This document shows positions 511-23,710 of a DNA stretch of 64,000 nucleotides, one piece after another; positions within the stretch are counted from its first letter, which is position 1; every line of letters begins with the position of its first letter. The notes beneath the pieces were generated by a model. The model worked only from the letters and a program-made list of their open reading frames with translations. It was not told where the DNA came from and did not search any database. Position numbers and translations under genes: made by a program. Origin of the DNA: Gammaproteobacteria bacterium (GTDB lineage Bacteria; Pseudomonadota; Gammaproteobacteria; Burkholderiales; SHXO01); NCBI GenBank assembly GCA_041488255.1, contig JBGPOV010000003.1:13247-77246 (forward strand). The letters are read 5' to 3'.

Positions 511-1671
511 TTAGACATAGGCTGGCCCCTCGATGACGGGGTGGGCTTGGAGGAACTTCTCGTCCAGCTCAACGCCGATGCCGGCAGACTCGAGCGGGCG
601 AACGCAGCCGTCGCGGCTCACCTCGTAGGGCCGGCTGACCAGCTCGTCGCGGAACAGATTGTTCTTGGACACGTCGCCCTCGAAATAGCCGCCGTTGTCG
701 ATCGCGGCCAGGAAGTGGATGGTGGCGGCCATGTTCAGCCCGGTCATGGAGGTATGCGGGTTTATTGGCAACTTCCATGCCGACGCGAGGTGAGCTACCC
801 GCAGCGCCTCGGTGACCCCACCGGTCTTGGACAGGTCCGGCTGCAGGATCGTCACGGAGCCGTCCTCGATCAAGCGGTTGAACTCGAAACGCGTGTAGTG
901 GTTTTCGCCCGCAGCCAGCGGCACGCTGCCGAAGGAGGTCGCCAGATTGTAGCTTTCGTAGTCGTGCGCTGGGAAGGGCTCCTCCAGCCAGCCTACGCCG
1001 TGCTCGTCGTAACCGGGCATCACTTTGCGGGCGTCGGCCACCGTGTAGCCGGTGTTGGCGTCCACCAGAATCTCGATGTCATCGCCCACGGCCTTGCGCA
1101 CCGCTTCCACGCGCGCCAGATCGCGCGCGGGCGTATCGCCCACCCGCAGTTTGATCGCCTTGTATCCCGCCTCGATCAGCGGCTGCGCCTCGGACACCAG
1201 CGCCTTGGGCTCCTGATAGCCCAGCGATACGCCGCCGGCGTAGGCCGGGATCGGCTTCGACGCGCCGCCTAGCAACCGGTACAGTGGCGCGCGCATCGCC
1301 TTGCCGCGGATGTCCCACAGCGCCATGTCGATGCCGCTCATGGCCAGACAAGCGCCCGCGCCCATGCCGTGGCTGCCGAGCTGGCGCACGTAGATCTTAT
1401 TCCAAACGCCTACTACGTCGTGTGCGTCCATGCCCAGCACGAGTTGCTTGAGCGTGGTGTTGACCAGATGCGCCACGGCACCGGGGCAGCGCCCGTGGTG
1501 CGATTCGCCCCAGCCCACTATGCCCGCGTCGGTGGTGACCTTCACGATCACCGCGTCGCGCTTTACGGCGCGTCCGATGCCCAGCGTCACGCTGTTCTTC
1601 GCGTCGACCGGGAACGATGACGCATAGGCCTTGATGTCGATGATGCGCAGGCCCGCTGTTGCGCTCGTCAT
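511..1671 (-). CDS. Mandelate racemase/muconate lactonizing enzyme family protein (enolase superfamily dehydratase/racemase)
   Basis: Track ORF 511..1734. Family motifs present: KLRVG, VDANTGYT, LEEP, GENH. Start moved to the ATG at 1671, preceded by AAGGAAACC. Confidence 0.85.
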   Translation of the reverse strand: MTSATAGLRIIDIKAYASSFPVDAKNSVTLGIGRAVKRDAVIVKVTTDAGIVGWGESHHGRCPGAVAHLVNTTLKQLVLGMDAHDVVGVWNKIYVRQLGSHGMGAGACLAMSGIDMALWDIRGKAMRAPLYRLLGGASKPIPAYAGGVSLGYQEPKALVSEAQPLIEAGYKAIKLRVGDTPARDLARVEAVRKAVGDDIEILVDANTGYTVADARKVMPGYDEHGVGWLEEPFPAHDYESYNLATSFGSVPLAAGENHYTRFEFNRLIEDGSVTILQPDLSKTGGVTEALRVAHLASAWKLPINPHTSMTGLNMAATIHFLAAIDNGGYFEGDVSKNNLFRDELVSRPYEVSRDGCVRPLESAGIGVELDEKFLQAHPVIEGPAYV

Positions 1672-7770: not shown

Positions 7771-8408
7771 GCCATTGCTCCCGTTGGTATTGTCGTGGGT
7801 GGCAGGCGCGCGCGTCTGGCCTTGGCGCCGCTTACCACCGAATGGGTGAGTACGTCCACAGTGTAACCCAGCCTCACCAGGGAGAGCCGCGTGTAGCTCG
7901 GGGCCTAGTGCTGCGTCGGAGAGCCGTAGCGCGCGGGCACGAGCTTGCCAACTGCGCAGAGAATCCGGACCTGACCTAGCAAGTCAGCGCGATCGTCCCC
8001 GCATCCGAACCGTGGAGTTGCAGAACAGGCTTGCACGGCCTCGAATCCGCGCCGATGGGAAGATTCTGTGACAAAGCTGACGCCAGCCTTAACCGATCGT
8101 CGCAGGCCAGATGCCCCGGAGAGCAGTGGGCCCGGCCGCTGCAAGCAAAGTCCGACAGGCGCCAGGCGACTGCGACGTATCACCTGATTTGGGTGAGGTC
8201 GCGCGGCAATCTATCTACCGCCTCGCCCCATCGGGCTCAAAAGTGACGTGCAGCGACAGCTTGCGCCGCTGTAGCGCAAAAAAGCTTGAACATAATCCGC
8301 TATTTAACACAGCTCTAAAGTTTTCCCGCCGGCTGTCGTAGGAGGGCAGTAGGTTAAGAGTCTCGTAAGAGAAGCAACCGTTGCAGCCCGCGATAGTTCG
8401 TGCGGGCA

Positions 8409-8497
8409 TGTTCGACAAGGGCAAACCCGAGCGAAAGCCGGGGGCGCAAAGTTACCGGTCTAAGGGCGAGAGCCTAGGACAGCGGGACCGCCGGACA
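8409..8497 (+). promoter_or_regulatory. c-di-GMP-I (GEMM-I) riboswitch aptamer
   Basis: ACAAGGGCAAACC / CCCG(A)GC-GAAA-GCCGGG hairpin / GGGGCGCAAAG / CCGGTCTAAG-GGC-GAGA-GCC-TAGGACAGCGGGA match the conserved GEMM-I blocks (Vc2-like) in order. Closing helix is TGTTCG 8409-8414 with CGGACA 8492-8497. Lies about 150 nt upstream of the pilin operon. Confidence 0.75.
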
Positions 8498-8647
8498 ACG
8501 GGCGCACGCCGTCGTGCTGCGCCCTCTGGTAGTCCTTTCTCCTCGCCCATTCCCGGTGTGACTGGTTAGCTTCCCGCCCCGAGTCTGCTTGACGCTCTGG
8601 GCGCCACCCTTGATGTGTCAGGGTCGGTCGGTTCGAGGAGGGTTGAT

Positions 8648-9151
8648 TTGGTGTTTAGGCAGAGGGCCAAGACAGCCAGGCGCACGTCCGGCTCAGCGGC
8701 CACGCGGACCGGTTCCCAGTGGCGCTCCAGGGCCAACTGGCGCAGATTCGGGTTCACGCTGGTCGAAGCGGTCATCACGCTGGTCGTCATGAGCATCCTC
8801 TGCGCCTCCGCCGTCAACAGCTACAGTTCCTACGCGAAACGCGCACGCGCCGTCGACGCGGTGGAGCAGCTCGACCAGTTCCGCACCCATATGGAAAAGG
8901 CATTCCAGGACAACGGCAACTACGGTGCCGCCGCATGCGCTGTGAACCCGCCGACCGGAGTGGACAAGTTCGCGTTCTCCTGCCAGCTTGGGCAGAACGG
9001 GCAGGCCTTCGCCGCCAATGCGACTGGGTTCGCGAGCATGGCTGGGTACGTGTTCAGCATCAATGAGCAGGGATTCAGACGCACCGAAGCGTTCCCCGGC
9101 GCCGCCGTGCCGGCCGATTGCTGGATGGTGGAGAAGGACAAGTGCCGATGA
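8648..9151 (+). CDS. pilE: Type IV pilin, PilE-like, with an atypically long basic prepeptide
   Basis: Prepilin cleavage/methylation motif RRFG|FTLVEAV, hydrophobic alpha1-N helix, C-terminal Cys pair (..ADCWMVEKDKC). The nearest in-frame starts are TTG 8648 and GTG 8651, downstream of GGAGG at 8637-8641. The track ORF starts at GTG 8615. Confidence 0.8.
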   Translation: MVFRQRAKTARRTSGSAATRTGSQWRSRANWRRFGFTLVEAVITLVVMSILCASAVNSYSSYAKRARAVDAVEQLDQFRTHMEKAFQDNGNYGAAACAVNPPTGVDKFAFSCQLGQNGQAFAANATGFASMAGYVFSINEQGFRRTEAFPGAAVPADCWMVEKDKCR

Positions 9152-9657
9152 AGCCCACTGCAGGATTCTCCCTGATCGAGCTGCTCCTGGTGCTGGTGGT
9201 TGTGGGTATCCTGACCGCCATCGCGTTGCCGACGATGCGCATACACCTGGCGAACGCGGACGTCCGCGGCGTGGCCGAGGAGATGCGAAGCGGCCTTGAG
9301 CTGGCGCGCACCGAGGCGATCCGGCGCAACACCAGCGTTCAATTCCAACGCAACGGCACCGGCTGGACCGTGGTAGTGCCGGGCGCCAACCTCGGCCAGG
9401 ACTTGCTGGTGGCCACGCGCGCGACGCGACAGACGCAGGTCAGCGTGACCACCGACACCGACAACGTTGCCTTCAATGGCTCCGGCTGGACCACACCGTT
9501 CGGCCAGACCATGAACATTGCGCTGCAGGCGAGCGGCGTGAGCGCGTGCCGTCCGACAGGCGGGATCTACTGCCTGAACGTTGTGGTCGCGGCCGGCGGG
9601 CTGGTCCGAAGCTGCGATCCGTCGGCTCAAATCGGCAGCCCGACTGCCTGCAACTGA
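9148..9657 (+). CDS. fimT: GspH/FimT family minor pilin
   Basis: MKPTAG|FSLIELLLVLVVVGIL prepilin motif and a GspH-like body. ATGA overlap with the upstream stop. Confidence 0.85.
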   Translation: MKPTAGFSLIELLLVLVVVGILTAIALPTMRIHLANADVRGVAEEMRSGLELARTEAIRRNTSVQFQRNGTGWTVVVPGANLGQDLLVATRATRQTQVSVTTDTDNVAFNGSGWTTPFGQTMNIALQASGVSACRPTGGIYCLNVVVAAGGLVRSCDPSAQIGSPTACN

Positions 9658-9669
9658 ACCAGGAGGTAC

Positions 9670-10104
9670 ATGAAGCACTATCAATCGGGCGGTGGTCTCG
9701 TCGAGGGCCTCATGTCGCTGGTTGTGCTCTCGGTTGGCATCCTCGGTCTGATCGGCATGCAGGCCACGCTGATCCAGGACAGCAGTGAGAGCCGCGTGCG
9801 CATGCAAGCGGGGTTCTTCGCTACCAGCGTCCTGGGCATGGCTGCTGCCAACCCGCAGAACGTGGGCTGCTTCATCGTGAACAGCGCACAGTCCGCGGCG
9901 TGCACCAGCCCGGATGCACAAACGCAGGCATCAGGCTGGCTCGATCAGGTCATTAACGCCCTGCCGGGCGCGGCGGGTGTGCCGCCGCAGGTGGCCTACG
10001 ACAATGCTAACGGGCACCTTACTGTAACGCTGCGCTGGCAGATGAGGGGCGACACCGTGGTCCACAACTACGTTGCCGCAACGCAGGTGAGCACCGGGCT
10101 GTGA
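9670..10104 (+). CDS. pilV: Type IV pilus modification protein / minor pilin PilV
   Basis: LVEGLMSLVVLSVGILGLIGMQ is the PilV N-terminal pattern. Position in the fimT-pilVWXY1 order supports the call. Confidence 0.8.
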   Translation: MKHYQSGGGLVEGLMSLVVLSVGILGLIGMQATLIQDSSESRVRMQAGFFATSVLGMAAANPQNVGCFIVNSAQSAACTSPDAQTQASGWLDQVINALPGAAGVPPQVAYDNANGHLTVTLRWQMRGDTVVHNYVAATQVSTGL

Positions 10105-11177
10105 AAGTGATGTACAGACACCAGTCGGGCATGAGCCTGGTCGAGCTCATGGTCGGCATCCTGGTGGGGCTGCTGGTAGTGATGGCGGCGTCCGGGTCGC
10201 TGGCCTTCTTCGACAGACAACGCAGGACCTCACTGTCGGGTAATGCAGCCATGAACAGCGGTGTCATGGCTGGCTACATGATGCAGCGTGACCTGCGCAA
10301 CGCTGGGGTGGGCCTGATGAATGCCACGCAGCTCGGTTGCACCGGCCTGAACCTTTACTACAACAACGCCACACGCGCCGACGGCGCTGCGGTAGCACCG
10401 GCGCAGATCACGGACGGCGGCGCCGGTCCGGATGCCGTGACCGTGTTCTTCACCGACTCGGTCCTGGGCAGCGCGCCGGTACAGCTGACGCACGGGCTGA
10501 CAGCGCCGGGCGATAACCTGCGAGTCAACTCGACCTCGGGTCTGCAGATTGGCGACGTGGTATTAATCGCCAGCTCTGTCCCGACCGACCCGTGCACCGT
10601 GGCCCAGATTTCAAGCATCACACCAGTGGCCACGGAGGTCGAGTTGGCGCACGCCGCCGGCCCGAGCCGCCCCTGGAACGCACCCAACCCCGGCGCTGCC
10701 TTCGCCAACGCTCCGCTGTATCCCGCTGGCGGGGGGGTGGTCAAGGCCGGCAATACGCTCACCTGGCGCCGCTACAGTGTGGCCAACGGTGCGCTTAACG
10801 CCACCGACCTGGTCACGGGCAATGCCATCCAGGTGGCCGCAAACGTGGTAAGCCTGCAGGCACAGTACGGTGTCACCGACGGCATCAGCAATGAGGTCCG
10901 GCGCTGGGTGGATGCGACCGCCGAATGGGCGAATCCCACGGCGGACCTGATCATGCGCATCCGCGCGGTGCGCTTCTCGGTGGTGGTGCGCAGTGACCGC
11001 AAGGAGCTCGTCAACGATGGCGCGGGCAATTGCGTCGTCACTGCGGTGGCCCCCTCGCCCTGGCCGGATGTGGCGGCGCTAGACCTGTCGGCGGACCCGG
11101 ACTGGCACTGCTACCGCTACCAGGTGTACGCCTCGATCGCACCGCTCAAGAACGTCGTCTGGAGCGTGTCCCAATGA
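10101..11177 (+). CDS. pilW: Type IV pilus assembly protein / minor pilin PilW
   Basis: QSGMSLVELMVGILVGLLVV N-terminus, size about 355 aa. The start is either GTG 10101 (GTGA overlap) or ATG 10110. Confidence 0.85.
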   Translation: MKVMYRHQSGMSLVELMVGILVGLLVVMAASGSLAFFDRQRRTSLSGNAAMNSGVMAGYMMQRDLRNAGVGLMNATQLGCTGLNLYYNNATRADGAAVAPAQITDGGAGPDAVTVFFTDSVLGSAPVQLTHGLTAPGDNLRVNSTSGLQIGDVVLIASSVPTDPCTVAQISSITPVATEVELAHAAGPSRPWNAPNPGAAFANAPLYPAGGGVVKAGNTLTWRRYSVANGALNATDLVTGNAIQVAANVVSLQAQYGVTDGISNEVRRWVDATAEWANPTADLIMRIRAVRFSVVVRSDRKELVNDGAGNCVVTAVAPSPWPDVAALDLSADPDWHCYRYQVYASIAPLKNVVWSVSQ

Positions 11178-11707
11178 GGCGCCGGCAACGCCAGAGGGGC
11201 ATGTCCCTCATCATTGTGCTCGTGGTGCTGGCGATGGTGCTGGTCGGAGGGCTCGCCATGCTGCGCTCGAGCGAAGTGTCGTCTCTGGTGGCAGGCAACG
11301 TGTCTTTCAAGGAGGCGGCTACTCAGGCCACCGACATCGGCATCAGCGATGCAGCCAAGGCGCTCGACGCCATGGCCAACATGGACAGCAACATCGCCAA
11401 CGTCTATTTCGCCACGCGCCAAGCGGAGGACAACTACGGCCTTCCGACCACGGTCGATTGGTCGGCGGTGCCCGCCTCGGCGGTGGGCAACTACAGCGTG
11501 CAGCACGTGGTAGAGCGCCTGTGCCAAACCACGCCGGTGACCGACCCGCTTGCCGATTGCATGGTACGTGATGCGGAGGCGCCGGGCAGCAACAAGGTCG
11601 GGTCGCAGGCATACAAGAATCCGGCCACCGTCTACTACCGGATCACCGTCCGCGTCACTGGCCCCAAGAGCGCCAGCGCTTTCGTGCAGGCACTGGTCCT
11701 GAAATAG
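11174..11707 (+). CDS. pilX: Minor pilin PilX (PilX N-terminal domain)
   Basis: MRRRQRQRGMSLIIVLVVLAMVLVGGLAMLRSS. ATGA overlap with the pilW stop. Confidence 0.8.
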   Translation: MRRRQRQRGMSLIIVLVVLAMVLVGGLAMLRSSEVSSLVAGNVSFKEAATQATDIGISDAAKALDAMANMDSNIANVYFATRQAEDNYGLPTTVDWSAVPASAVGNYSVQHVVERLCQTTPVTDPLADCMVRDAEAPGSNKVGSQAYKNPATVYYRITVRVTGPKSASAFVQALVLK

Positions 11708-11772
11708 ATTTCGATTGCCCGCCGCCCAACGCGGCGCGAATCGCCCGCCACAAGACACAAGAGGTGTCCGAA

Positions 11773-14700
11773 ATGATGCGCACAACCTCGCATACAGCCG
11801 TCGCCTGGCTGTGGATCGCTCTGCTGGAGATGTCCCCGGCGGCGCAGGGAGCCAGCGTGGCCAACATGGACATCTCGACAGTGCCGCTTGACGTGCGCAG
11901 CGCCGCCAAGCCGAACATCATCTTCGGACTGGACGACTCGGGTTCGATGGATTTCGAAGTGCTGCTCAACACCAACGACGGGGCGGCCTGGTGGCTGAAG
12001 CCCTCGTCCGGCACTCCGTCTTTCACCGACGGCAGCGGCAAGCTGTGGTTCAACGCCAACGGCAACCCTGGAAACGACAGCAGCGGCACTTGGTACAAGT
12101 ACGCGTATCTGTTCCCCGACGGTACCGCTTCCGACGCGCGCGTCCTATCCGACAATACCTACGACCACTATGCTATCGCGCCGATCCCGGCGTTCGCCTT
12201 CTTCCGCAGTCACCAGTACAACCCGCTCTACTACGATCCCCAGGCCATTTACGCGCCCTGGGCCCCCGCCTACCTGAGCGGCGCCACGCGCACGTTCTCC
12301 GCCGCCAGCAGCAGCGCCGCGCGCAGCCACCCGTGGCTGCCTACTGCCGGGTCGCCAACCACCGTCAATCTTACGACCAACCTGTCCTCCGCGGCGGCGA
12401 ACTGGACCTTCCGCATGCTGCCGGGGATGACCATACCGGGCGCGAGCATCTCCGGAATCGTGGGCCGCCGCAACGCCGGCACCTGGAATAACGTTACGAC
12501 CAATCTGGCGATCGCACCGGGCGACACCTGGGATGTGGAGATTCCTTACTATCTGGCGACCTACTACGTGGTCGACAGCACGTGCTCGGCCGCCGAGCTG
12601 ACTAGCGGCGCGTGCGCCACTGCTCCTGACGGCCAGAAGCTGCGCCGCTACGAGATCAAGAGCGGCAACGCGTTCCCGTCGGGTCGCACTTACGCGGCCG
12701 AGATGCAGAACTTCGCCAACTGGTTCACCTATTACCGCAAGCGGAAGCTGATGCTCGCTGCGGCAATGGGCCAGGTGCTGTCCCAAGTGCGCGACGTGCG
12801 CGGCGGGATCGTCAAGTTCAACTCGCGCTCGGCGGTGACGATGTACGACTTCAACGCGACGACCGACAGCCAGAACTATCGGCAGCTGCTGGGAACCGTG
12901 GACACCAACCCGTCCAACGGGGGCACGCCCACGCGCGACGCGCTTGATTACATCGGACAGCAGTACATGCGTACCGACGGCAGCGCGCCGATCCAGTACG
13001 CTTGCCAGCGCAATGCGGCGTTCATCCTGACCGACGGCTTCGCCAACGCGAGCGGGCCGACCGTGGCCGCTTATAACAAGACCACCTGGGGCAATGCTGC
13101 GCCGTTCACCCAGATCTTCAACAATACCCTGGCCGACATCGCGCTGTATTACTTCACCACCAACCTGCAGCCGACCATGCAGGCCGGGCTGGTTCCGTTC
13201 GACCCCACCAACACGCGCCCGGACGCGGACCGCAACCCCAACCTACACCTCAACACCTACGGCCTGACGCTGGGATCGAAGGGTACTATCTTTGGTGTGA
13301 ATCAGCAGCAGACCGACAATCCGTTCAGTTACCCACCGAGCTGGCCCAACCCGAGCCAGAACCGCAACCCCACCTCGGTAGACGACCTCTGGCACGCCGC
13401 CATCAATGGGCGCGGGCAGATGTATACGACGAGCGATGTGACGGGCACGGTGTCCAAGATCCAAGCCATGGTCGCCGACCTTCTCAACAAATCCGGCTCG
13501 GCGGCCGCCGTGGCGGTATCCAACGTAAACATCCGCGCCGGCGACAACACGGCCTACGCCTCGGCCTATTCCACCGGCGGCTGGTACGGCGACCTGCTCG
13601 CGTTCTCGGTCGACGTCACGACGGGGAACGTGGCCACCAACACGCCGCTGTGGTCGGCGCGTGACGTGCTGGAGACGCGCAACCCGACCACGCGCCTCAT
13701 CGCCACCTACAATCCCACGTCGCACACGGGCGCCCCTTTCGAGTGGGCGAGCCTTGACTCGACCCAGCAGTCGCAACTGTCCACCATCGCCTCCGCGCCC
13801 ACCCTGACCAACGGTCAGGAGACGCTCAATTTCCTGCGCGGCGACCGCACGCACGAGGCCGACGGGTACCGCATCCGCGCATACATCCTGGGTGACATAG
13901 TCGATGCGGAGCCGGTGTCGGTGCGCGGCGCGGTGGGTGAGTACGCCGACACCGGGTATACGGTGTTCCGCAACACCCAGGATACGCGCAGGGCCATGGT
14001 CTACCAGGCCGCCAATGACGGCATGCTGCACGCCTTCGACGCCGCGACCGGTGCGGAGTCTTGGGCATATATACCCGACCTGGTGTTCCCCGGCCTGTCG
14101 GAGCTGGCCTCGCCCAGCTACACGCACCACTTCTATACCGACGGCACGCCCACTGTGGGCGATGTCGACTTCACCAACACCTTCGGCGCTAGCGGCAGCG
14201 CCGACTGGCGTACCATCCTCGTGGGCGGGCTACGCTCGGGCGGCAAGGGCTATTACGCGCTGAACGTCACCTCCCCCGACGCTATCGACGAGAACGCGGT
14301 CGCGAGCAAAGTGCTGTGGGAGTTTCCCAACGCCAGCACGTCGCAGACGGTGGTCGACAATCTGGGCTACAGCTTCGGCAAACCGCTGATCGTCAAGACC
14401 CACGCGTATGGCTGGGTGGTCGTGGTCAGCTCCGGCTACAACGCCACCGCAGGTGACGCGAAGGGCCATCTCTTGTTCCTCAACCCGCGCAATGGCAACG
14501 TGCTCAAGGAGCTGGTCACCACCGACGGCACCTCGGGCAACCAGGCCAACCTGGGCCAGATCTCGGGCTTCGTGCTGAACGGCCAGGCCGACCTGACGGT
14601 GGAGCAGTTCTACGGCGGGGACAACCTGGGCAACATCTGGCGCTTCGACGTCTCCGCGCCCAACTCCGCGTCCTGGAGTGTGGCCAGGCTGGCCGCGCTG

Positions 14701-15342
14701 ACCGACGCGACGGGCAACCCGCAGCCGGTGACCTCGGCGCCGGAACTGGTCACGGTCAAGGGCAAGCGCGTAGTGCTGGTGGGAACGGGCAGGCTGCTTG
14801 GCGATACCGACGTCAGCAGCACTGCTGTGCAGTCGGTTTACGCCATCGTGGATGACGGCACGGCCGCCCCGCAGGTCAGCCCACTGCGCTCGAAGCTCAC
14901 GCACAAGATTCTGACCGTTGCCCCCGGTGGGATACGCAATGTCAACTCCGATGCGGTTGACTGGACGAACAGCTCCGGCTGGTATTTCGATCTGCCGGCG
15001 GGCGAGCGCGTGTCCGGCGATCCGACCGCCGTATATGGCACGCTGATTTTCACCACCAACCAACCTTCCCCGGTGGCCTGTTCGTCCGGCAGCTTTCTGT
15101 ATGCTGTCGACATCAACACCGGTGGCCAGGTCGCGCAATCGAACTTCGCGACGGGCGAGGTGGGCTGGACCGGGAAGTCTCTGGCTCAGAGCCTGTCGAC
15201 CAGGCCGGTCGTGGTCGTACTGCCCAGCGGGCAGGTCAATTCCCTGGTGCGCAGCGCCGATGGCGGCATCATGTCCAACCGCCTGCCGCTGTCCTGGAAC
15301 CGCCAGGTGAAGAAGGTCTCCTGGAAGGAGATCATCCGCTAG
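11773..15342 (+). CDS. pilY1: Type IV pilus tip adhesin / biogenesis factor PilY1 (vWA domain plus PilC/PilY1 beta-propeller)
   Basis: Signal peptide. vWA MIDAS IIFGLDDSGSMD (11932-11952). PilY1 family motifs GGLRSGGKGYYALNVT and FYGGDNLGNIWRFDV. Confidence 0.9.
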   Translation: MMRTTSHTAVAWLWIALLEMSPAAQGASVANMDISTVPLDVRSAAKPNIIFGLDDSGSMDFEVLLNTNDGAAWWLKPSSGTPSFTDGSGKLWFNANGNPGNDSSGTWYKYAYLFPDGTASDARVLSDNTYDHYAIAPIPAFAFFRSHQYNPLYYDPQAIYAPWAPAYLSGATRTFSAASSSAARSHPWLPTAGSPTTVNLTTNLSSAAANWTFRMLPGMTIPGASISGIVGRRNAGTWNNVTTNLAIAPGDTWDVEIPYYLATYYVVDSTCSAAELTSGACATAPDGQKLRRYEIKSGNAFPSGRTYAAEMQNFANWFTYYRKRKLMLAAAMGQVLSQVRDVRGGIVKFNSRSAVTMYDFNATTDSQNYRQLLGTVDTNPSNGGTPTRDALDYIGQQYMRTDGSAPIQYACQRNAAFILTDGFANASGPTVAAYNKTTWGNAAPFTQIFNNTLADIALYYFTTNLQPTMQAGLVPFDPTNTRPDADRNPNLHLNTYGLTLGSKGTIFGVNQQQTDNPFSYPPSWPNPSQNRNPTSVDDLWHAAINGRGQMYTTSDVTGTVSKIQAMVADLLNKSGSAAAVAVSNVNIRAGDNTAYASAYSTGGWYGDLLAFSVDVTTGNVATNTPLWSARDVLETRNPTTRLIATYNPTSHTGAPFEWASLDSTQQSQLSTIASAPTLTNGQETLNFLRGDRTHEADGYRIRAYILGDIVDAEPVSVRGAVGEYADTGYTVFRNTQDTRRAMVYQAANDGMLHAFDAATGAESWAYIPDLVFPGLSELASPSYTHHFYTDGTPTVGDVDFTNTFGASGSADWRTILVGGLRSGGKGYYALNVTSPDAIDENAVASKVLWEFPNASTSQTVVDNLGYSFGKPLIVKTHAYGWVVVVSSGYNATAGDAKGHLLFLNPRNGNVLKELVTTDGTSGNQANLGQISGFVLNGQADLTVEQFYGGDNLGNIWRFDVSAPNSASWSVARLAALTDATGNPQPVTSAPELVTVKGKRVVLVGTGRLLGDTDVSSTAVQSVYAIVDDGTAAPQVSPLRSKLTHKILTVAPGGIRNVNSDAVDWTNSSGWYFDLPAGERVSGDPTAVYGTLIFTTNQPSPVACSSGSFLYAVDINTGGQVAQSNFATGEVGWTGKSLAQSLSTRPVVVVLPSGQVNSLVRSADGGIMSNRLPLSWNRQVKKVSWKEIIR

Positions 15343-16550: not shown

Positions 16551-16861
16551 CGGCACCGGCTTGATCTGGCCGCGGGCCAGGGCGATCACCTCGAAGACAT
16601 TGGCCACCGCCACTCCCGTGATGCGGTCAGCGACGCTCCGGATGATGACCACGGTAAATGGTTTGTAATCGGCCGCTCCCAGCGCGACTTTAGGCGCGTG
16701 CCCAGCACAGGGATCACCAGCATACGCAACTCGATTGCGCCATTGATGGACGCTGACCGGTTTGCGATGTGAGCCGCTACGCCGGCCTCAGCCGCACCGT
16801 GCGCTCGTCGGGGGGTCAGCGTGAGAAGGCGTTTGGCTCGGACGCGCGGACTCTTTGCATA
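16551..16861 (-). pseudogene. cheW: cheW remnant: frameshifted, no start codon, C-terminal third missing
   Basis: Frame B reads ..HIANRSASINGAIELRMLVIPVLGTRLK, compare E. coli CheW [29 protein letters not shown]. After a 1-nt shift near 16686-16692 the cheR frame reads VALGAADYKPFTVVIIRSVADRITGVAVANVFEVIALARGQIKPVP, compare [43 protein letters not shown]. Confidence 0.6.
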
Positions 16862-17610: not shown

Positions 17611-17931
17611 ATGGTGAAGATCACGCGAATGTTGCTGGGCGGCGCCCTTCTGCTGGTGACAGCGCTCGCCGCCGCCGGCCCGCTGATACAAGGTAAGGCT
17701 CCGACTGCGACGGATTATCCACAGTGCCAGGATGTCGTGCACCGTGCGCCGAAAGCGATGGAAGAGGCGGGGCGGCGTAACCGGTTTGTCCAGAACATCG
17801 CACAAGAGGGCGGCAGCAGCGCGCCGAACGCCGCCATGGACGAGTACCTCTCCTTTCATGCCCAGGTTACCGAGGACAACGGCAAGTTCTCGCTCATGCC
17901 TTGGTCGGGGCTGCGCACCCACGCCAACTAG
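17611..17931 (+). CDS. Hypothetical secreted protein (106 aa)
   Basis: MVKITRMLLGGALLLVTALAAAG signal peptide. ATG 17611 follows GAGGA. A possible TTGACA-N17-TACTCT promoter lies at 17546-17574. Confidence 0.5.
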   Translation: MVKITRMLLGGALLLVTALAAAGPLIQGKAPTATDYPQCQDVVHRAPKAMEEAGRRNRFVQNIAQEGGSSAPNAAMDEYLSFHAQVTEDNGKFSLMPWSGLRTHAN

Positions 17932-18083
17932 CACGCGGCGGATCGCAATGTCTCGCCCGCGCTTAGCCTGTTGACGCGCATAGGCTCCAGCCCAGCGGCT
18001 CAGTTCCCCGGAAGCTATGGATTGCATCGGGGAGGCAGAGGAGCCTTGCGCGTGCGGTCTGGCGCGCGGGGCGAAACCTTGGT

Positions 18084-23159: not shown

Positions 23160-23527
23160 GAAGCTGGCCAGGCAATCGCTGCGTCGCGTCTTGCGGCGCA
23201 GAGGAAAGTCCGGGCTCCGCAGAGCAGGATGCCGGCTAACAGCCGGGCGCCGCGAGGCGACGGAAAGTGGAACAGAGAGAAGCCTGCCTACGTCCCGGTA
23301 ACGGGACCGGCGATGGTGAAACGGTGGGGTAAGAGCCCACCGCGGACCTGGCAACAGGGACGGCACGCCAAACCCCATCCGGAGCAAGGCCAAATAGGGG
23401 AGCCACAGCGCGGCTCGCGCTGCTCCCGGGTAGGTCGCTTGAGCCGCCGGGTAACCGTTCGGCCCAGAGGAATGATTGCCCAAGGGGTTCCCCCCTGGAC
23501 AGAACCCGGCTTATAGGCCAGCTTCAC
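23160..23527 (+). ncRNA. rnpB: RNase P RNA, bacterial type A
   Basis: GAAGCTGGCCAGGCAATCGCTG.. 5' end, GAGGAAAGTCCGGGCTCC, GGTAAGAGCCCACC, CCGGAGCAAGGCCAAATAGGGG, and ACAGAACCCGGCTTATAGGCCAGCTTCAC at the 3' end. Collinear with E. coli M1 RNA. Confidence 0.9.
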
Positions 23528-23710
23528 GTCTGCCTTCCGATTCACTAGTGTCGTCCCCTCCCGACGTTGTGTGCCCGGCCAATTCTCGAAATTACATTCA
23601 CTATCCATCTTATCTATTTATTTCTATTGCATGTCCAATATAAATTCCGTCTGTTTCTCAGCTCCTCGATATAAGTCATTGTCCCGAATGCAAAATCTAG
23701 AGATTTCCGC

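Follow-up and report, generated by a model that had tools for sequence, protein, structure and literature searches.

A c-di-GMP-I riboswitch candidate ahead of a minor-pilin/PilY1 operon in uncultured soil Burkholderiales

The survey of the GEMM motif published in 2007 highlighted Delta- and Gammaproteobacteria, Firmicutes and Planctomycetes, and it already reported this RNA upstream of the pilus-assembly genes pilM, pilO, pilQ, pulF and cpaA (PMC1950547). Here we describe an RNA of the same type in a window of 64,000 nucleotides (nt), by which we mean the whole stretch of DNA analysed (positions 13,247 to 77,246 of contig JBGPOV010000003.1, assembly GCA_041488255.1). In this window, a class I aptamer for cyclic diguanylate (c-di-GMP), also called c-di-GMP-I or GEMM-I, occupies the leader of an operon for the minor pilins and PilY1 of the type IV pilus. 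The Vc2 RNA, located upstream of tfoY (VC1722) in Vibrio cholerae, has in common with it two hairpins closed by a P1 helix, a GNRA tetraloop, a receptor-like motif, contacts of the G20/A47/C92 type and a 5′ cis-regulatory position. The window leader differs from Vc2 in its host, an uncultured soil member of the Burkholderiales, in an extra covarying hairpin 5′ of P1, in a platform of ~150 nt and in its target genes.

The GEMM RNAs found at pilus genes of Geobacter and others share with the window the aptamer class and a geometry in which terminator and aptamer overlap, whereas their targets are genes of the assembly machinery or secretins, and not a minor-pilin/PilY1 priming and adhesin operon. 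Many of the Geobacter copies belong to the A20 subtype, which responds to cyclic GMP-AMP (cGAMP), whereas the window, the close genome leaders and the divergent locus L016 carry G20. For Clostridioides difficile, Bordeleau et al., whose 2015 paper (J Bacteriol 197:819) is cited in PMC7998248, are said to have described a class II riboswitch, Cdi2_4, upstream of pilA1, which reportedly works as an ON switch by relieving a terminator. This would likewise be a c-di-GMP riboswitch on type IV pilus genes and with the polarity favoured here, although with an unrelated class II fold, in a Gram-positive host and on the major pilin. The leader of the flgB flagellar operon in the same bacterium holds Cd1, a GEMM-I RNA through which c-di-GMP turns a motility operon OFF. 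Like the window element, Cd1 is a class I aptamer in a long motility-operon leader with an apparently dedicated promoter, and it sets a precedent for the rival OFF polarity, but it serves flagellar genes through the terminator-based platform of a Firmicute (for context see PMC5386303 and PMC6200980). Finally, the operon fimU-pilVWXY1Y2E of Pseudomonas aeruginosa has a gene set homologous to that of the window: GspH/FimU-like, PilV, PilW, an open reading frame (ORF) in the PilX position, PilY1 and a PilE-like pilin. Its control in Pseudomonas relies on the protein regulators AlgR and Vfr, with no riboswitch known, and the window operon differs from it also in having the PilE-like pilin first, with a pre-peptide of 33-34 amino acids (aa).

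By every feature testable here, the leader element belongs to the c-di-GMP-I family and is neither a GEMM-Ib nor a class II RNA. A preliminary description of this DNA, made from its letters only, had recognised a GEMM-I aptamer and expected a + strand match to Rfam family RF01051 (c-di-GMP-I) above the gathering threshold, with RF01786 (c-di-GMP-II) as a negative control. This is what the searches returned: RF01051, for which the gathering score is 35, matches the window at 8410-8495 (+) with 69.4 bits (E 1.6e-11) and over its full length (model positions 1-87 of 87), whereas RF01786 gives no match in 8250-8760 even at E<=10. A permissive Rfam scan of the same interval added two chance-level matches only, so no other meaningful family is seen in the leader. 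The core sequence quoted in that description has the right letters, although it spans 76 nt and ends at 8489 instead of 8490. The structural parts it had drawn are all present. The closing helix, given as UGUUCG (8409-14) with CGGACA (8492-97), corresponds to P1 at 8410-8414 with 8492-8496; the hairpin CCCG(A)GC-GAAA-GCCGGG (8426-8442) is capped by a GAAA tetraloop at 8433-8436; and the hairpin GGC-GAGA-GCC (8465-8474) is flanked by the receptor-like UCUAAG/CUAGGA. These flanks resemble CCUAAG/UAUGG, which we take to be the tetraloop receptor, and the docking itself is putative, as read from sequence.

8410 to 8496, + strand: c-di-GMP-I (GEMM-I) aptamer, recognised by its RF01051 score, conservation and covariation

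With regard to the ligand, of the two guanines of c-di-GMP one is read by G20 of Vc2 and the second pairs with C92, and position 20 is A in the GEMM-Ib RNAs that select cGAMP (PMC6140456). When the window is aligned to the family consensus, the nucleotides equivalent to G20, A47 and C92 fall at 8420 (G), 8448 (A) and 8483 (C). All three are invariant in the seven genome-derived leaders, and the same letters occur in L016. The equivalence of 8448 to A47 is, unlike the roles of G20 and C92, our own presumption. The window, the six close genome leaders and L016 thus all have G at the position of 8420, and because it is G and not A, c-di-GMP is the predicted ligand by the rule of PMC6140456, in agreement with what the preliminary description had proposed from this nucleotide.

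The conservation of the aptamer was followed with a covariance model built from the window and six orthologous leaders. In a genome set of 80 PilY1 loci (1.5 Mb), the aptamer was found upstream of the orthologous operon in seven related loci, comprising the close clade and the divergent L016, and was not found in 72 more distant PilY1 loci, including that of Pseudomonas gingeri (L011). Its position in the covariance-model matches is always ~3.3 kb upstream of PilY1. The aptamer of L016, whose PilY1 is 51% identical, is a divergent one at the equivalent position (RF01051, 75.1 bits), and a Rfam scan of six other loci at intermediate distance revealed no aptamer. The nearest PilY1 relatives of the window, with 81-84% identity, come from metagenome-assembled genomes of uncultured Burkholderiales from soil and groundwater. 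Moreover, a metagenome scan with the first-gene pilin gave 29 loci, and in 25 of them the aptamer immediately precedes the pilin; the remaining four contigs stop before the leader, so that all 25 loci with enough upstream sequence are positive. In a seven-way alignment the aptamer is almost invariant, with a mean column identity of 67% for the rest of the leader. Throughout 33 copies (27 distinct), 96.4% of the pair cells are paired and compensatory changes occur at 9 of 26 pairs, in an alignment fitted to the family model and therefore favouring the structure; none of 500 shuffles reached the observed values, and slid registers are only 26-47% paired. The covariation across the 27 distinct copies supports a conserved structure made up of P1, the tetraloop hairpin and the receptor hairpin; the preliminary description had suggested looking for covariation in the two hairpins. 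An aptamer that recurs in 33 copies with compensatory changes, and that stays near-invariant amid diverged flanks, points to a real element under selection, far beyond chance.

Its place in the genome is equally constant. All 33 copies lie on the coding strand in a 5′ position ahead of the first operon gene, and the prepilin cleavage motif follows the end of the aptamer at a nearly constant distance across loci (219-265 nt). In the window, the aptamer ends 152 nt before the first start codon, on the same strand, whereas a small ORF and an SbmA/BacA-type ABC (ATP-binding cassette) transporter lie upstream on the opposite strand; within this divergent intergenic region the aptamer can therefore serve the pilus operon only. 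Altogether, we consider it nearly certain that this RNA is a c-di-GMP-I aptamer and that it regulates the pilus operon in cis.

Downstream of the aptamer core, the leader contains the elements from which an expression platform may be built:

8485 to 8535, + strand: alternative (switch) helix, identified comparatively by its conserved position and compensatory changes
8536 to 8585, + strand: U/C-rich, G-poor tract of rut-like composition, beginning at the 3′ end of the switch helix
8607 to 8653, + strand: ribosome-binding region, identified by leader alignment, start-codon analysis and RNAalifold

The switch helix joins GGAC-C-GCCGGA (8485-8495), which is the 3′ strand of the aptamer, to UCUGGU-A-GUCC (8525-8535). 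It encloses a variable GC hairpin at 8500-8524 (GGGCGCA 8500-06 with UGCGCCC 8518-24) and is mutually exclusive with P1 and with the base of P2. The helix is predicted in most leaders; on an imperfect alignment it is 77% paired, compared with 43-54% in slid registers, and in place of its C/A mismatch six sequences have U-A and three have C-G. When transcripts ending at the arm are folded, enforcing the aptamer gives a fold 4-10 kcal/mol less stable than the unconstrained one, a gap within the range that tight ligand binding could offset, and in 8 of 15 leaders the unconstrained fold pairs at least 7 of the 12 nt of the aptamer 3′ strand downstream. The hairpin at 8500-8524 had been proposed as a weak terminator or expression platform; the hairpin exists, but it is the inner part of the longer 8485-8535 helix and no terminator by itself, and only the extended helix abuts the U/C tract.

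The tract opens with UUUCUCCUCG (8536-8545), directly after the switch helix, which could be a terminator U-tract, an anti-Shine-Dalgarno (anti-SD) sequence (CUCCUCG 8539-8545 against the Shine-Dalgarno at 8635-8642), or both. Over all 24 leaders, the first 50 nt after the helix have 42% C and 21% G, compared with 32% and 33% window-wide. The 8-nt tail following the helix holds 3.2 U where 1.9 are expected, and five U in the UUUCUCCU of the window; read from the tails, at least three U (up to six, in L092) come straight after the helix in about 60% of leaders. In most subclades, some of which lack a U-tract, the helix is followed by anti-SD motifs of the CUCC type. Further downstream, the Shine-Dalgarno (SD) GAGGAGGG lies at 8635-8642 and the start codon is UUG 8648 or GUG 8651, in accordance with the approximate 8637-8651 given before; GAGUCCGUUCGAGGAGGGUUGAUUG, within the ribosome-binding region, is nearly invariant among relatives. 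Two neighbouring segments may also be noted: a conserved pyrimidine block GCUUCCCGCCCC (8569-8580), for which pairing with the SD region is possible, and CCCUUGA (8607-8613; CCCUCG in relatives), which can pair with UCGAGG of the SD region and would then form a hairpin that sequesters the SD locally, its loop being about 20 nt long.

The 5′ part of the leader is conserved in three further places:

8294 to 8311, + strand: conserved upstream block AATCCGCTATTTAACAC, near-invariant across all subclades with diverged neighbours
8316 to 8342, + strand: sigma-28 (FliA)-like promoter block, conserved in all main-family leaders
8387 to 8406, + strand: accessory hairpin CCCGCG...UGCGGG, recognised by covariation and lying outside the Rfam model

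The promoter-like block consists of TAAAGTTT (8316-8323), a spacer of 11 nt and GTCGTAGG (8335-8342), for which most relatives have GCCGTAAG as the second element. Compared with what we take to be the sigma-28 consensus of Escherichia coli, TAAAGTTT-N11-GCCGATAA, the −35-like element agrees at 8 of 8 positions and the spacer is exact, whereas for the −10-like element the agreement falls to 3 of 8 positions in the window and, with GCCGTAAG in most relatives, to 5 of 8. Along these lines, every subclade conserves AAATCCG-N2-ATTTAACA-N5-CTCTAAAGTT-N11/12-GYCGTAAGA at 65-115 nt upstream of the aptamer, and a pattern scan for sigma-70-like promoters found none on the + strand of the window leader or of L092. 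A reasonable, tentative reading is that a FliA-type promoter at 8316-8342 drives the operon, and the block at 8294-8311 could be a regulator site or a UP-like element upstream of it. The accessory hairpin lies three nucleotides before P1; 91.8% of its cells are paired compared with 30-53% in slid registers, compensatory changes occur at 5 of 7 pairs, and none of 500 shuffles reaches the observed score.

Between the promoter-like block and this hairpin (8335-8375), relatives show three spaced GTAAG motifs (CGTAAGAG...GTAAGTCAGA...CGTAAGAC), the window version being GTCGTAGG...AGTAGG...CGTAAGAG; these may be repeats bound by a protein, or they may belong to the transcript 5′ end. Elsewhere in the window, 8 kb from the aptamer leader, a one-mismatch match to the sigma-28 consensus, TAAAGTCGCGCTGGGAGCGGCCGATTA at 16666-16692 (−), ends 14 nt upstream of the start of cheR at 16652, a gene on the opposite strand just downstream of the pilus operon. 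A second good consensus site in the window precedes an M23 peptidase and was set aside as uninformative for the sigma-28 reading.

How these parts may work together is a matter of folding and comparison, and we favour a terminator-type ON switch. A leader of roughly 300 nt would be transcribed, probably from the sigma-28-like block at 8316-8342. With c-di-GMP bound, the aptamer 3′ strand (8485-8496) would be locked into P1 and P2; with no ligand, it would pair with 8525-8535 to give a long GC-rich hairpin (8485-8535) which, abutting the U/C tract at 8536-8545, would act as an intrinsic terminator. By blocking termination, c-di-GMP would turn the operon ON. We prefer this polarity because the helix abuts the U/C tract and because its geometry is the one described by Weinberg et al. 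2007, where a terminator's 5′ side commonly overlaps the 3′ side of GEMM, implying activation by the ligand (PMC1950547). To the whole statement, a class I riboswitch in the minor-pilin/PilY1 leader, of the terminator type and with ON polarity, we give a probability of about 0.4; computation leaves the polarity between two leanings, and an OFF switch acting through translation or Rho has a lesser, still considerable, likelihood.

Several results weigh against the terminator-type switch. In a single-sequence test, the duplex energies of the switch helix are no better than those of shuffles (mean z −0.6), so that the support for this helix is comparative. Of the 12 nt of the aptamer 3′ strand, only 3 find downstream partners in the minimum-energy fold of the window's own truncated transcript. 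In the window the U-tract is short or interrupted (UUUCUCCU), and it is absent in L014, L016, L099, L106 and L108, despite the competing helix being kept there. A pattern-based terminator scan, with a stem definition that cannot represent internal loops, flags nothing in the window or in L092. Every leader has a C-rich, G-poor 50-nt tract, and SD-complementary CUCC motifs occur in it in most subclades; a pure intrinsic terminator needs neither. In RNAalifold, moreover, the SD and start region is paired with the released arm and the CU tract. Finally, equilibrium folding of eight leaders, with the aptamer enforced or free, showed no consistent change in the accessibility of the SD or start codon. 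Whole-leader minimum-free-energy z-scores were not significant.

Part of this evidence suggests translational control, which we regard as a rather unlikely alternative. According to it, c-di-GMP would close the aptamer, and the freed 8525-8535 arm and CU tract (8536-8545) would pair with the SD and start (8635-8653) and block initiation, whereas in the ligand-free state the aptamer 3′ strand would hold the arm and the ribosome-binding site would be more accessible. Among 13 post-aptamer leaders, RNAalifold indeed pairs CUC with the SD, and CUGGCAGUC with GAUUGUUGG around the start codon; the main-clade consensus shows complementarity at 17 of 19 positions; a targeted duplex test averages z −1.0 and reaches p<0.05 in 7 of 23 leaders, and in L016 the best downstream site of the arm anywhere is codons 2-3. 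The CUCC-type motifs that follow the helix in most subclades, some of them lacking a U-tract, fit this as well, translational control is the commoner riboswitch output in Proteobacteria, and a sigma-28-like promoter would suit a motility-phase gene shut off by high c-di-GMP. On the other hand, the window's own leader fails in these tests (targeted duplex z +0.5; arm-to-start rank 0.97), the subclade of L109, L102, L103 and L100 is without a CUCC tail, an unconstrained search for duplexes between post-aptamer leader and ribosome-binding site gave no signal (mean z +0.3), and a matrix of cognate and non-cognate pairs was mixed, the diagonal being best in 4 of 11 rows. The logic is also incomplete, since the anti-SD tract is free in the ligand-free state too. 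A specific helix between the 3′ arm and the start codon was tried and rejected, as only 3 of 24 leaders had the start region among the top 5% of the arm-only scan, which failed in the window; the apparent resemblance of the start region to the aptamer strand (GACCGCCGG compared with GAUUGUUGG) is for this reason a weak lead only. The same 50-nt tract might instead be a Rho-utilization (rut) site, with the ligand-dependent fold or translation governing Rho loading in the leader or early operon. Its composition (C 42%, G 21%), found in 24 of 24 leaders, is more universal than the U-tract or the CUCC motifs, and the mgtA and ribB leaders of enterobacteria are established cases of Rho-dependent riboswitch control. 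Composition is nevertheless the sole evidence and would be the same for anti-SD motifs or a pyrimidine-rich terminator tail, and the tract is single-stranded in both predicted states, which makes a ligand effect hard to see; we hold this reading to be improbable.

Two other readings concern the leader as a whole. The aptamer could be real and have no cis-regulatory role, either as part of a stable leader-derived RNA that buffers c-di-GMP, as abundant GEMM-I RNA possibly does as a sink in Bdellovibrio, or as a functionless relic. The strict linkage of 33 copies to one operon type across two lineages, the conserved competing helix that uses the aptamer 3′ strand and the nearly constant distance to the cleavage motif all argue against this, and a relic would hardly stay near-invariant inside diverged leaders; the idea is accordingly highly improbable. 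A composite unit peculiar to this soil Burkholderiales lineage, which we find doubtful, would join the sigma-28 promoter, the 5′ hairpin, the c-di-GMP-I aptamer and a bifunctional 3′ arm with its C-rich tract, the arm pairing either with the aptamer 3′ strand or with the ribosome-binding region that resembles this strand. If true, it would be an RNA-level gate tying the minor pilins and PilY1 to the flagellar regulon and to the c-di-GMP level, acting at the switch between swimming and surface attachment.

The operon following the leader is the pilE-like, fimT-like and pilVW(X)Y1 set that had been read from the sequence, and Pfam and NCBIfam matches bear out the downstream genes:

8648 to 15342, + strand: regulated operon, with Pfam and NCBIfam matches and a matching layout in relatives
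8648/8651 to 9151, + strand: pilin-like (PilE-like) gene with a prepilin methylation motif
9118 to 9657, + strand: GspH/FimT-like gene (Pfam/NCBIfam)
9670 to 10104, + strand: PilV (Pfam/NCBIfam)
10101 to 11177, + strand: PilW (Pfam/NCBIfam)
11030 to 11707, + strand: ORF in the PilX position, between PilW and PilY1
11764 to 15342, + strand: PilY1, 1192 aa (Pfam/NCBIfam)

Neither Pfam nor NCBIfam gave a match for the ORF in the PilX position (11030-11707), whose start codon is ambiguous owing to its overlap with the end of pilW. The first pilin begins with an unusually long, basic and arginine-rich pre-peptide (33-34 aa, 8648-8749) before G|FTLVE. Such a pre-peptide occurs in all riboswitch-bearing loci (43 aa in L016), conserved in length and not in sequence, and in riboswitch-free relatives that keep the operon layout it can be as short as 4-12 aa. 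A motif search for GGDEF, EAL or PilZ within the window gave nothing convincing, which is no evidence either way on c-di-GMP turnover.

Other RNA elements were also found in these loci. At 1356-1451 (+) of L106, about 670 nt upstream of its pilin-operon aptamer, there is a second c-di-GMP-I aptamer (84 bits with the covariance model of this analysis), which is preceded by a sigma-28-like CTAAAGG-N14-GTCGATAA and followed by the gene of a secreted DUF4189 protein (about 1498-1908). This second aptamer ahead of a DUF4189 gene suggests a small c-di-GMP riboswitch regulon in this lineage. In addition, the window holds a full-length bacterial class A RNase P RNA at 23160-23529 (+) (306 bits), and the Silvimonas amylolytica locus (L009) a 6S RNA at 17894-18074 (+) (54 bits), unrelated to the riboswitch.

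Regarding novelty, full-text literature searches, with incomplete coverage, turned up no paper that describes a minor-pilin/PilY1 operon under a c-di-GMP riboswitch, nor this leader family in Betaproteobacteria. The preliminary description knew of no such case: in the literature searched this stands for the link to minor pilins and PilY1, and not for the association of GEMM with pilus genes as such, which was reported in 2007 (PMC1950547). What is new is the pairing of a known sensor class with a minor-pilin/PilY1 operon, and not a new type of element. The anatomy added by this clade, namely the covarying 5′ hairpin, the conserved sigma-28-like block and the conserved alternative helix with its U/C-rich, G-poor tract, is a further addition of this analysis; these clade-specific extras make the finding a reasonable experimental target, though no surprise for specialists.

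The practical value of the finding is modest: the aptamer class is well understood, Rfam-based annotation pipelines can find it, and the hosts are uncultured. Its biological interest lies in the genes involved, because type IV pilus assembly is primed by PilY1 and the minor pilins, which also have a central part in surface sensing, and in model organisms their operon is under protein regulators. That the riboswitch closes a loop between PilY1 and c-di-GMP is speculation. If the proposal is true, the leader would offer a compact and transplantable means to study how the level of c-di-GMP is converted into pilus production, and a direct RNA sensor of this kind would mean that in some Betaproteobacteria the priming of pili is coupled to the second messenger without an intermediary.

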